Source: an uncultured Bacilli bacterium (GTDB lineage: Bacteria; Bacillota_I; Bacilli_A; RF39; UBA660). Taken from it: a DNA stretch of 64,000 nt. Of this stretch, positions 30,833 through 59,251 are shown in pieces. The stretch spans positions 10,154 through 74,153 of the forward strand of contig CAKPQS010000001.1 in assembly GCA_934179675.1 (NCBI GenBank), read 5' to 3'. How positions within the stretch are numbered: position 1 is the stretch's first letter; each line of letters begins with the position of its first letter. Both the position numbers and the translations under genes were made by a program. The notes under the pieces were generated by a model. That model had not been told where the DNA came from. It was given only the letters and a program-made list of their open reading frames with translations, and did not search any database.

Positions 30833-31558
30833 TTAACTATAATTAACGTTAACTAAATATAAACCATTACTTGAAGCACAAATTCCTGCTTTTTTTCTAT
30901 CTTTAGCATCTAATATTTTTTGAACATCAAAAATATTCTTACTTCCATTTCCAACTTCTATTAATGCTCCAACTATATTTCTTACCATATATTTTAAAAA
31001 CCCATTTCCTATAAAGTCAATTGAAATTATATCATTTTCAATGGTAATATTTATACTATAAATAATTCGTGTACAGTCTTTTTCGTAGTCTAGTGAAGTA
31101 AAGGATCTAAAATCGTGTTTGCCAATAAATATTTTTGCTGTTTCTTGCATTTTTGCTATATCAAGTTTTTCATTATATTGATATACATATTCTTCTTCAA
31201 TTGGATTAAAAATTCCTATATTTATTTTATAAAGATATTCTTTTGAAATTGCACTATATCTTGCATGAAAATCTTCAGAAACAGAATACAATTCTTTAAT
31301 ATAAATATTTTTCAACAAACAATTTAAAGAATGTCTTAATTTAACAAAACTTAATTTCTTTTGACTATCAAAATGTAAACATTGATTATAAGCATGTACG
31401 CCAGCATCAGTTCTTCCAGATGCAACTACTCTAATTTTCTCATTAAATATTTGACTTAAAACATTTTCAATATCACCTTGAACAGTCCTTTTATTAATTT
31501 GTTTTTGATAACCATTAAATTTTGAACCGTTATAACTAAATTTCATAAAATATCTCAT
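30833..31558 (-). CDS. truA: tRNA pseudouridine(38-40) synthase TruA
   Basis: ASGRTDAGVHAYNQ catalytic-Asp motif; 241 aa; conserved position upstream of rplM-rpsI. Confidence 0.85.
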   Translation of the reverse strand: MRYFMKFSYNGSKFNGYQKQINKRTVQGDIENVLSQIFNEKIRVVASGRTDAGVHAYNQCLHFDSQKKLSFVKLRHSLNCLLKNIYIKELYSVSEDFHARYSAISKEYLYKINIGIFNPIEEEYVYQYNEKLDIAKMQETAKIFIGKHDFRSFTSLDYEKDCTRIIYSINITIENDIISIDFIGNGFLKYMVRNIVGALIEVGNGSKNIFDVQKILDAKDRKKAGICASSNGLYLVNVNYS

Positions 31559-32160
31559 TTATATACCTCCAAAAGAAAACAAAAAACAAAACTTACAATA
31601 TGTAAAAAAACAAATAAATAATCATATAAATTAGTTTTGGATGATTTTATATTATAATTTTTTAAATTTTCATATTTTGTGTAATTTATATTTTTAAAAG
31701 ATAAGTATAATGAATTTATTATATTTCTTTTCCCATACATTGAATAATTAGTTTTTATATATAATTTAAAATTATTTTTAATAATTTTATATTTGTAAAA
31801 ATATTTGAATAATTTATGTTTAAATATTTTGTAAAAAGAATTATCTAAATCTAAATAATTATTTGTATATAATAAATACTTTATATAAGAAAAAATTAAC
31901 AAAAATTGAAAAATATAAATAAATTGTAAATGACAAATTATAGATGTCAATAATATAATTATAAAATCAAAAAAATCAATTTTATAAATTTTAAAGTTTA
32001 TTTTGCTACGCAAATTAATAAATAATAAAATACAAAAAAGTAATATTATTCCTAAATAATCATGGGCTAATAAACTTGACAAAAAGAAAAACAAAAAAGA
32101 TATAATCTTAAAATAAGATGGAACTAAAAAAACTATACTATTCTTCAAATCTATACACAT
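31555..32160 (-). CDS. hypothetical polytopic membrane protein (in the ecfT position; highly divergent)
   Basis: Hydrophobic, extremely AT-rich ORF. It occupies the ecfT slot upstream of truA in the conserved Firmicutes ecfA-ecfA'-ecfT-truA-rplM-rpsI arrangement, but no EcfT motif is recognisable. Confidence 0.3.
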   Translation of the reverse strand: MCIDLKNSIVFLVPSYFKIISFLFFFLSSLLAHDYLGIILLFCILLFINLRSKINFKIYKIDFFDFIIILLTSIICHLQFIYIFQFLLIFSYIKYLLYTNNYLDLDNSFYKIFKHKLFKYFYKYKIIKNNFKLYIKTNYSMYGKRNIINSLYLSFKNINYTKYENLKNYNIKSSKTNLYDYLFVFLHIVSFVFCFLLEVYK

Positions 32161-32689
32161 CCTTTGCTAAATCAGCAACATTATTACGATATATTCCTAT
32201 TTTTTTATTTTTGTATTTTTCAATTTTTTGAGCAAATTCAATGCAAAAAGGAACATTATTTTTTTTATTTTTAAATATATCAATTATATTGCCAGTTCCT
32301 TCTTCACAAATGACATAATCACATAAATCAAGTAATATTTCAGTATTTTTTGAACAAATTATAATTTTGCATACTTTATTTTTTTTTATTGTTCTAAATA
32401 AAATTTGTAATTTTTTTATATCATCATATTCAAAATCACAAAACATATTTTTAAATATTATATATTCTGGTTTTTTTAGTAAATAAGAATTAAAAACAAT
32501 TAAAAATTTTTCATAATATGTTAAATTTTTTTTATCAAAAGTGCTAATATCAATATATTCTGACGACTTATAATTTTTTTTTGAAATACATAATAATTGT
32601 TTTTCTATATCACAAATGACATTTCCATCAATTAAATTTTCATCTAATGTAAAACCATTTATAATTCCATCAAATTGATATTTATTCAT
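32138..32689 (-). CDS. hypothetical protein (degenerate EcfA'-like remnant?)
   Basis: 183-aa ORF in the ecfA' slot; weak ABC-like C-terminal pattern only; no Walker motifs. Confidence 0.3.
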   Translation of the reverse strand: MNKYQFDGIINGFTLDENLIDGNVICDIEKQLLCISKKNYKSSEYIDISTFDKKNLTYYEKFLIVFNSYLLKKPEYIIFKNMFCDFEYDDIKKLQILFRTIKKNKVCKIIICSKNTEILLDLCDYVICEEGTGNIIDIFKNKKNNVPFCIEFAQKIEKYKNKKIGIYRNNVADLAKDVYRFEE

Positions 32690-33369
32690 AAATTAAAAAT
32701 TACCTCATCCATATCTATACTTTTTTCTTTTAATATGCCATAATTAATAAGTCTATCACATAAATCAACAATTTTAACATCCGTTATTTCGTTAACTGAA
32801 CAAACGCTAAAATCTTTTTTTATAATTTGTTTTGAATATAATAATTCTTCAGGATTAGTCGTAAAATTTAAAACAATTATATTGTTTTCTATAAGCAAAG
32901 AATAAATTTTATTTCTATCATCTATACTTAAAAAACATAAAACATTATTTAAATAAATAAATTTAAATCTTTTTAATATACCATATAGTATAGAAACTAT
33001 AATTTTTTTATCAAAAGGAATATCATCAATATTTATATATTTATAATTAGATAATTCAAATTTTATAATATACTCGTCTATTAATTTGATATTTTCACTT
33101 CCAAGTAAAAATTCATTATATAAATTATTAGAAACAAAATAAAAATTTTTATCAACATAATATAATTTATTTTTTAAATTATAAATATTATTTTTACTCA
33201 AAAAATTACCATCTATATTTATATAACCCTCATAATCTTCATAACCCATTAAAATAGGTATTAATGTATCACCTGAAAAATAAAATGAATTCCACTTTTC
33301 AGATATACAAAATGAAGCATTTTTAATTACATTTTGATATTTTAAATTATGTACATCAATATATTTCAT
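32686..33369 (-). CDS. degenerate ABC-ATPase-like protein (EcfA-like with catalytic motifs lost)
   Basis: The register matches ECF-type ABC ATPases (IDVHNLKY...ASFCISEK...FSGDT where the GxxGxGKST Walker A should be; LYGILKRF for the LSGGQ signature; IYLNNVLCFLSID for the Walker B DEPTS), so the catalytic residues have been replaced. Confidence 0.4.
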   Translation of the reverse strand: MKYIDVHNLKYQNVIKNASFCISEKWNSFYFSGDTLIPILMGYEDYEGYINIDGNFLSKNNIYNLKNKLYYVDKNFYFVSNNLYNEFLLGSENIKLIDEYIIKFELSNYKYINIDDIPFDKKIIVSILYGILKRFKFIYLNNVLCFLSIDDRNKIYSLLIENNIIVLNFTTNPEELLYSKQIIKKDFSVCSVNEITDVKIVDLCDRLINYGILKEKSIDMDEVIFNL

Positions 33370-33432
33370 AATATCCCCACTTAATTATATCAAATAATTA
33401 AAAGGAAATAAATAAAAAAAGAACCGAAGTTC

Positions 33433-33651
33433 TTATTTAACAAAAGGTATTAAAGCCATAAAACGTGCTTTTTTTACTTCACCAGCGATAAATCTTTGAT
33501 GTTTAGCACATGCTCCTGTAATACGACGAGGTAAAATTTTACCTTTATCAGAGCTTACATATCTTTTAATTACATCAACATCTTTATAATCAACTGTTTT
33601 ACCAGCACACATTTGACAAACCTTTTTCTTTTTTCTAAAAAATTCTGCCAT
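33433..33651 (-). CDS. rpsR: 30S ribosomal protein S18
   Basis: [11 protein letters not shown]...[33 protein letters not shown] is the bS18 pattern; 72 aa. Confidence 0.85.
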
Positions 33652-59029: not shown

Positions 59030-59069
59030 CTCTATCCAAACATTTGTTCGCTTATGATGTTATTTTTAC

Positions 59070-59160
59070 AATAAAAAATAGTGCACACGTTTAGAGGTTT
59101 TTAAGGCTGCTATCTTCCAATTCTGACCTGTTTCAAACATAATCGTTGCACCAAATAAAA
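59070..59160 (-). ncRNA. ffs: small SRP RNA (4.5S/scRNA, ffs), tentative boundaries
   Basis: The minus-strand sequence ...GGUGCAACG...AACAGGUCAGAAUUGGAAGAUAGCAGCCUUAA...CGUGUGCAC+U6 contains the conserved domain IV (CAGGUCAG...GGAA tetraloop...AGCAGCC) of bacterial 4.5S RNA. A closing helix GUGCAACG/CGUGUGCAC and a U-tail are also present. Confidence 0.55.
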
Positions 59161-59251
59161 TATACAATATTTTAATTTTTTTTTCAAGGTTTTAATGTAT
59201 TTTTTAATCATTTTTATAATAAACATTTAAACAATAATAAATAGCTGTTTT

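Follow-up and report, generated by a model that had tools for sequence, protein, structure and literature searches.

In a 64,000-nucleotide stretch of DNA from an uncultured Bacilli bacterium (hereafter the window), three consecutive minus-strand open reading frames (ORFs), ORF1 to ORF3, fill the interval 33369-31555 exactly, between rpsR and truA. We show that they are orthologues of ecfA1, ecfA2 and ecfT, which encode the shared energising module of group II energy-coupling factor (ECF) vitamin transporters, and that neither of the two predicted nucleotide-binding sites of this module is left in the clade to which the window belongs. ORF1 (33369-32686, 227 aa) is an EcfA1-derived pseudo-ATPase, ORF2 (32689-32138, 183 aa) a truncated pseudo-ATPase derived from EcfA2, and ORF3 (32160-31555, 201 aa) a membrane protein derived from EcfT. 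All three genes are under relaxed but clear purifying selection. With a probability of roughly 0.7, in our estimate, they encode a non-catalytic ECF-derived complex in which both nucleotide sites have been lost and which is kept by selection.

Descent from the ECF energising module

An earlier note, made from the sequence alone, had placed these ORFs in the slot that ecfA-ecfA'-ecfT takes upstream of truA. The coordinates were confirmed, and the assignment to this slot is supported by profile-profile alignment (hhalign), by fold matches and by the intact modules of relatives, which occupy the same slot immediately upstream of truA. The trio is flanked by ychF-rpsF-ssb-rpsR upstream and truA-rplM-rpsI downstream. 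The note had further taken the locus to be rearranged; rpsR is indeed the upstream neighbour, but this is only partly specific, and the intact modules of relatives have no rpoA-rplQ upstream either.

ORF1 aligned with intact EcfA1 of related gut Bacilli over its full length, C-terminus included (hhalign probability 98.9%, E 2.7e-17), and the two have the peptide landmark YDGYINIDG in common. The best matches of the ORF1 family profile in the PDB were the EcfA1 chains of 8bmr/5jsz (E 0.005). For ORF2, alignment with intact EcfA2 (hhalign probability 92.9%, E 3.7e-7) paired residues 54-183 with EcfA2 121-259, from the signature slot to the C-terminus; a C-terminal landmark, D[IL]xKD[IV]YR, is shared (DLAKDVYRF in ORF2 versus ELMKDIYRNV). 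When the intact EcfA2 of a related locus (L015) was used as a tblastn query, ORF2 was recovered at E 7e-8, and the top Foldseek matches in the PDB of the AlphaFold2 model of ORF2 (predicted local distance difference test, pLDDT, 68.6) were the ECF ATPases 8bmr_A, 4mki and 4huq_A (E 3.6e-5 to 6e-5). Both ORF1 and ORF2 thus combine homology to the nucleotide-binding-domain fold with the C-terminal helical extension typical of EcfA. ORF3 aligned with intact EcfT over 107 N-terminal columns (hhalign probability 82%, E 1e-5), and a MAFFT alignment was collinear through to the C-terminus. It has the EcfT fold and the expected gene position between ecfA2 and truA; its model predicts four N-terminal helices in the transmembrane region, then helices of a shortened cytoplasmic part, and finally a transmembrane helix at the C-terminus.

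Standard family models were silent on the trio. When the three window proteins were scanned directly with Pfam and NCBIfam, no family match was significant (the scans stayed at noise level, with CydD at E 0.0076 and ECF_T_CbiQ TIGR02454 at E 7.8 and 6 bits). The Pfam ATP-binding cassette (ABC) model ABC_tran (PF00005) matched neither ORF1 nor ORF2 with the E limit raised to 10, nor any of 11 ORF2-family members, and CbiQ (PF02361) matched neither ORF3 nor any of 13 members of its family. With E values up to 1 allowed, ABC_tran matched four of 12 ORF1-family members; the strongest match (1.4e-8) presumably belongs to the outlier P0020, a protein 44% identical to ORF1. Control proteins from relatives were readily detected by ABC_tran (96-102 bits, L007) and CbiQ (86-94 bits, L007 and L008). 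PDB profile searches with the ORF2 and ORF3 families likewise returned nothing relevant. On such negatives the three could be taken for unrelated hypothetical genes that merely sit in the ECF slot, a view that we find barely credible: profile-profile alignment, pairwise tblastn, fold and synteny all lead to EcfA1, EcfA2 and EcfT, and P0020 does match ABC_tran.

The earlier note had proposed a search with the ABC_tran and CbiQ models as a check. Nothing was found in the window proteins, yet homology emerged by other routes; as Pfam is silent on true homologues here, a literal reading of that search would wrongly have dismissed it. The prospect of no ABC-fold homology at all, also considered in the note, is contradicted by the hhalign and Foldseek matches. 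Judged by defining motifs the proteins fall outside ABC_tran and CbiQ, but their descent from both families is well supported.

At residues 143-206 of ORF1, Pfam gave a marginal match to DUF3110 (E 4e-4; 21.0 bits, cut-off 20.2). Weak matches to the same model, with E up to 1, were seen in 8 of 12 ORF1-family members, and the match is probably compositional.

Motifs lost from each protein

Motif slots were set by alignment to the intact EcfA1, EcfA2 and EcfT of relatives. At Walker A, where intact proteins read IGPNGSGKTT, ORF1 has FSG----DT, preceded by WNSFY: four residues are deleted and the lysine is gone, in agreement with the placement of FSGDT in the earlier note. The two other ORF1 assignments made there were off register. 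The true signature slot (LTNSEKQ in intact EcfA1) is IPFDKKI, with IPFDKK at residues 117-122, and LYGILKRF, which had been read as the signature, is a helix about 9 residues further downstream; the true Walker B slot (ILILDE) is IYLNNV, residues 138-143, and the proposed FLSID lies in the D-loop slot 5-6 residues downstream. At the H-loop, ITHN is replaced by FTTN. ORF1 therefore has no LSGGQ, no catalytic Glu and no H-loop His, and its Walker B Asp has become Asn. Relative to EcfA1 it carries further deletions of about 8, 4 and 14 residues, and it retains the EcfA-type C-terminal helices.

ORF2 has lost about the first 55 residues of EcfA2, comprising two beta-strands, the P-loop and helix 1, together with about 20 more; the N-terminal part of the alignment behind this is suggestive only. 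Its Walker A region is accordingly absent, and its remaining slots read LTYYE for the signature LSGGE, IIFKNM for the Walker B IILDEP and ICSKN for the H-loop IITND. In ORF3 two deletions, one of 11 and one of 9 residues, shorten the coupling-helix region, and neither X-Arg-X motif remains: where relatives have LRFIP and AQxxRG, ORF3 aligns with FYKY and NNFKLY / KTN.S.YGK. Such arginine signatures (Ala-Arg-Gly/Ser), which dock into grooves of the ATPases, are conserved more strongly than any other feature of T units (PMC3246461, PMC10368641).

Could the module still be an ATPase, either because non-canonical residues bind or hydrolyse nucleotide or because an ATPase is borrowed from elsewhere, so that it remains an energised transporter? 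The intermediate P0020 (locus L011) does have an EcfA1 with a perfect Walker A (GLSRSGKT), and few positions of the family are better conserved than those of the former ATP sites. We nevertheless regard this as improbable. In the window clade the P-loop has lost four residues as well as its Lys, Asn replaces the Walker B Asp in the window protein, and neither the catalytic Glu nor the H-loop His is left; in the partner, the GG of the signature is YY and the P-loop region is deleted outright. A regular-expression scan of the window ORFs found no ABC-type P-loop, and the window itself supplies no P-loop ABC ATPase. The sequence argues against ATP binding or hydrolysis coupled to release of the substrate-binding S-component.

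The loss of all the motifs, on which the earlier note was right, holds beyond the window and is common to more than 20 independently assembled homologues. Because the same loss recurs in so many assemblies, sequencing error was ruled out as its source.

Both degenerate ATPase families carry invariant cysteines that are absent from intact EcfA1 and EcfA2 (C145 and C204 in ORF1; C84, C107, C112 and C123 in ORF2). They fall where Walker B/D-loop and H-loop stood in the ancestral proteins and could mark a metal or redox site, a fixed interface or drift toward the AT-biased codon TGT.

Coding potential, spread and selection

The three ORFs are tightly packed. ORF1 and ORF2 overlap in the stop/start ATGA, as do ORF3 and truA. 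The overlap of ORF2 with ORF3 is 23 nt long, or 11 nt with TTG 32148 taken as the ORF3 start, the alternative that agrees with the start in most homologues. The truA ribosome-binding site (GGAGG) sits inside the C-terminal codons of ORF3, at its invariant LEVY C-terminus. No plus-strand ORF of at least 40 aa was found within 31555-33369. With a per-codon stop probability of 0.109, the chance of 183-227 stop-free codons is 4e-12 to 6e-10, and 2000 shuffles yielded stop-free stretches of 96 codons at most; the ORFs are thus far longer than chance permits. As the earlier note had remarked, they are extremely AT-rich, in fact the most AT-rich genes of the neighbourhood (GC 17.1%, 18.1% and 13.7% for ORF1, ORF2 and ORF3, versus 24.6% for the window and 23.7% for truA). 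This deficit is confined to codon positions 1 and 2, GC at the third position (GC3) being the same as elsewhere.

Full-length homologues without Pfam annotation formed 21 clusters for ORF1 (44-99% identity), 16 for ORF2 and 13 for ORF3. In a scan of one genome per GTDB species, the ORF1 family was present in five species representatives, all uncultured human-gut Bacilli metagenome-assembled genomes or Firmicutes bacterium CAG:884; one carrier is labelled Muribaculaceae, probably through a binning error. The order rpsF-ssb-rpsR-ORF1-ORF2-ORF3-truA-rplM-rpsI was identical in all five. An exhaustive profile search of 1.84 billion representatives retrieved as family members P0011, P0020 and fragments only, after which scores dropped from 296 to 75 bits and to ordinary EcfA1-like proteins. 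The degenerate clade is small.

Every orthologue found, including those in the five species-level genomes, had intact ORFs with no stops or frameshifts. Identity to the nearest species (L001/L002) was 80% for ORF1, 81-84% for ORF2 and 73-74% for ORF3, against 85% for truA and 95-100% for ychF and ribosomal proteins. In the same comparison the ratio of nonsynonymous to synonymous divergence (dN/dS; Nei-Gojobori method, NG86) was 0.21, 0.13 and 0.23 for ORF1, ORF2 and ORF3, with dS of 0.5-0.75 (0.5-0.6 against L001), and 0.10 for truA; between L001 and L002, the closest pair, it was 0.075, 0.16 and 0.19. Bootstrapping over three pairs gave ratios of 0.13-0.35, with every upper 95% limit below 0.6. 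At larger divergence (versus L004 and L005) dN/dS climbs to 0.35-0.57, which we attribute to saturation of dS at 8-12% GC3 and not to neutrality, and so we relied on the closer pairs; saturation at this GC3 makes the values conservative. About 45-58 columns are invariant in each family (58 in the ORF1 family), many of them in former ATP-site slots. Highly conserved stretches in these slots are WNSFY, DKKII, NVLCFL and NFT.NPEE in ORF1 and FKN.FCDF, C..IC.KN and LCDYV in ORF2.

The earlier note had left two readings side by side, a decaying module and a pseudo-ATPase scaffold. For decay, in which an inactivated module would keep open ORFs only for want of time, one can cite the loss of all catalytic motifs, the drift of GC at codon positions 1 and 2 toward the mutational AT bias, and the fact that ORF1 to ORF3 are the fastest-evolving genes of the neighbourhood. 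We consider it very improbable, and the purifying selection leads us to reject it. ORFs are intact in all of the more than 20 clusters, down to about 45% identity, and free of frameshifts and stops in the five species-level genomes, whereas neutral sequence with a stop probability of about 0.11 per codon would break within tens of codons; dozens of invariant residues persist as well. The dN/dS analysis that the note had suggested as a pseudogene check likewise spoke against decay (0.13-0.23, upper limits below 0.6). A pseudo-ATPase scaffold of putative function is the reading that survives.

A probable graded loss of ATP sites among relatives

Asymmetric ATP sites were present even in the "intact" ECF modules of related uncultured Bacilli. 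Five such modules (L006-L010) lie immediately upstream of truA and encode EcfA1 of 268-275 aa, EcfA2 of 259-273 aa and EcfT of 242-250 aa. Their EcfA1 proteins keep Walker A, D-E and His and have a degenerate signature (LTNSE, LNDSE or LKEST). Their EcfA2 proteins keep LS[GSY]GE and lack the H-loop His; in two of the five (L008 and L010) Glu is replaced by Asp, and in L010 (L010:2124-2903) the Walker A Lys is replaced by Cys. One consensus site is therefore left, composed of the EcfA1 P-loop and the EcfA2 signature.

The mirror image, an EcfA2 P-loop with an EcfA1 LSGGQ, was seen in L015, on a contig of a spore-former (L015:5001-7329), where EcfA1 has no Walker A and EcfA2 is apparently competent; there truA follows directly, with no ecfT in between. 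In L011 the EcfA1 (P0020), besides its Walker A, has LDN and no His, and the EcfA2 is already truncated to 190 aa. The rpsR junction is common to this intermediate and to the degenerate clade. A separate degenerate lineage in a different genomic context is represented by L013 (L013:4617-6779) and also L014: EcfA1 has no P-loop, the EcfA2 P-loop is shortened (GFGKTT) and the signature missing, and the T-slot protein (226 aa in L013) has no Pfam match and no Arg motifs. The window clade keeps none of the ATP-site motifs. Taken together, the relatives suggest a series from one competent site to none, in which the order of losses is our inference and not the outcome of a tested phylogeny.

Possible function of the complex

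Intact, overlapping ORFs under purifying selection argue that the three genes are not pseudogenes and hence that they encode a working, non-catalytic complex. Common descent, motif loss and selection come from the comparisons above; function we infer from them, and the complex now probably works without ATP. ORF1 and ORF2 would form a constitutive heterodimer, held together by the conserved EcfA-type C-terminal helices and by the remodelled surface of the former ATP sites, and the pair would sit on a membrane platform formed by ORF3. That many of the most conserved residues occupy the former ATP-site slots suggests that the old ATP-site and dimer surface now serves as a protein interface that is fixed.

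Without nucleotide, a bona fide ECF module is open and competent for docking; when ATP binds, the ATPases close, the coupling helices bend and the S-component is expelled (PMC10368641). With no nucleotide sites, a module would stay in one conformation. Our preferred guess is that it may act as a passive platform for docking and toppling of S-components, with equilibrative uptake drawn by metabolic trapping; a recruited role outside transport would be nearly as likely.

Several observations weigh against a working non-catalytic complex. The production of the proteins, their assembly and their loss of nucleotide binding are all read from sequence. Loss of X-Arg-X together with the partial loss of ORF2 could mean that contacts between the T unit and the ATPases are broken rather than remodelled. 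The structure models are only moderate (pLDDT 65-69), with values below 50 in the ORF3 coupling-helix region and the ORF2 C-terminus. NG86 is crude at 8-12% GC3, and constraint is relaxed relative to the neighbouring genes, as reduced GC in the first two codon positions and a dN about twice that of truA indicate. Neither S-components nor a second intact ECF module were found in the regions screened, namely the window and about 40 kb of extra flanks and orthologous loci.

Some of these features could also reflect a change of job, in which the trio has left S-components and vitamins for a structural, regulatory or redox/metal-linked membrane-associated role served by the newly fixed residues. 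The ECF coupling surfaces are altered (X-Arg-X lost, coupling region 20 residues shorter, ORF2 truncated N-terminally), new invariant motifs and Cys absent from intact relatives have appeared, and the essential inactivated ABC-type ATPase MMSYN1_0138 of a low-GC minimal genome provides a precedent (PMC13621843). Against this, no new domain, partner gene or change of context points elsewhere, the operon retains its ancestral link to truA, and the gain of Cys is partly expected from mutational bias since Cys codons are AT-rich (TGT). We hold such a new function to be possible, at well under even odds.

A bolder form of the non-catalytic complex is that of a natural "zero-site" ABC module, a motor that no longer binds nucleotide and is still needed, as an ATP-independent platform for S-components (facilitated vitamin diffusion) or in a wholly new role. 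We offer this only tentatively, at well under even odds. If it were true, the one-site modules (L006-L010 and L015), L011 with its P-loop alone, the window clade with no site and L013, which became degenerate independently, would form a stepwise record of the passage from ABC motor to pseudo-enzyme scaffold.

Comparison with known systems

The reference modules for the group II EcfA-EcfA'-EcfT arrangement are those of Lactobacillus delbrueckii ECF-FolT2 (5jsz/5d3m/8bmr) and L. brevis (4huq). Compared with these, both ATPase subunits of the window trio are without the Walker A lysine, LSGGQ, the catalytic Glu and the H-loop His. Its EcfA2 lacks the P-loop-bearing N-terminus (183 aa versus about 260-273), its EcfT is 201 aa long versus about 245 and has neither X-Arg-X motif, and none of the three proteins is recognised by Pfam models.

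Asymmetric ABC transporters with one degenerate nucleotide site include TM287/288, TAP1/2, CFTR and Pdr5. The ECF ATPases of L006-L010 and L015 resemble them in that one composite site is eroded. To our knowledge, transporters of that type always keep one competent consensus site; in the window module, unlike in these, both composite sites are gone.

MMSYN1_0138 of JCVI-syn3.0, a homologue of ABC ATPases, carries mutations in Walker A and Walker B and is retained as an indispensable protein in a low-GC reduced genome (PMC13621843). While it is a precedent for functional dead ABC ATPases, it is FtsE-like with inserted domains, is not an ECF protein and does not form part of a module in which all three genes are degenerate. 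Also comparable are solitary S-components, such as BioY, and those subgroup I modules in which loss of the T-unit arginines is tolerated (PMC3246461). There, ECF parts mediate some transport or stay assembled with weakened coupling, which makes an ATP-independent mode conceivable. These systems differ from ours in that the ATPase module is either absent or active, whereas the window module is complete but catalytically empty.

ECF transporters are the chief vitamin importers of Firmicutes and are drug targets. A selected module minus both ATP sites would be a natural experiment on the scaffold role of EcfAA'T beyond energy, would ask whether passive toppling and docking are possible, and would show a route from an ABC ATPase to a pseudo-enzyme. 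The cycle is thought to depend on ATP binding for expulsion of the S-component (PMC10368641). For annotation, the blindness of Pfam and NCBIfam to the trio means that metabolic reconstructions of these uncultured gut Bacilli would call ECF transport absent or, going by synteny, wrongly present and active. No description of an ECF module without both nucleotide sites was found in the searchable literature, the coverage of which is incomplete, so that this is not proof of novelty.

Transcription signals and genome neighbourhood

The spacer between rpsR and ORF1 (33370-33434, minus strand) was read by eye. Right after the rpsR stop it holds a hairpin, AAGAAC-TTCG-GTTCTT, with a T-run (33434-33414), then an extended -10-like element, TGATATAAT, at 33392-33384, and an ORF1 ribosome-binding site, GGGG(A), at 33378-33374, 4-5 nt ahead of the ATG. 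Together the three elements suggest, weakly, that the module may have its own transcription start. Neither the hairpin nor the -10-like element was picked up by the consensus scanner, and the promoter/terminator scan (49 found versus 38 expected; terminators, 0) was near background in this AT-rich DNA and uninformative for ORF1. In the truA-rplM spacer we noted a perfect sigma-70 consensus promoter, TTGACA-17-TATAAT (30805-30777, minus strand), which suggests that rplM-rpsI may have a promoter of its own, separate from the ORF1-ORF3-truA unit.

In one of the two nearest species, rpsF (L001:2244-2531) has an in-frame TAA where GAA stands elsewhere (AY*IKK versus AYEIKK), probably an assembly or consensus error.

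The locus is origin-proximal: in the flanks (L016-L019), dnaA-dnaN-recF-gyrB lie just past the window end, beyond gyrA. The flanks also carry the sporulation genes SpoIIID, SpoIID, CotJB, BofA and CotZ together with ComK, by which gene content the organism is a predicted spore-forming, low-GC gut member of the Bacillota and not a Mollicutes-like minimal cell. Walks through the flanks on the origin side and in the sporulation neighbourhood found no ECF or S-component genes.

A 16-bp palindrome, TGTTCCACGTGGAACA, occurs in nine copies (six exact, three with one mismatch) between 59253 and 60391, spaced about 105-190 bp apart; none would be expected by chance. The array lies in a 1.4-kb ORF-free gap of 13-20% GC that extends from gyrA to the signal recognition particle (SRP) RNA gene, about 10 kb from dnaA. 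The palindrome matches TGTTNCACGTGAAACA, which we take to be the Firmicutes parS/Spo0J-binding consensus, and if the copies are parS, the array would be unusually dense for chromosomal parS. The window also encodes parA and parB (about 39079-37414). The small bacterial SRP RNA (59065-59162, minus strand; RF00169, 55.4 bits), the sole Rfam match at gathering threshold in the window, is immediately upstream of a tadA-like deaminase gene and dnaX.

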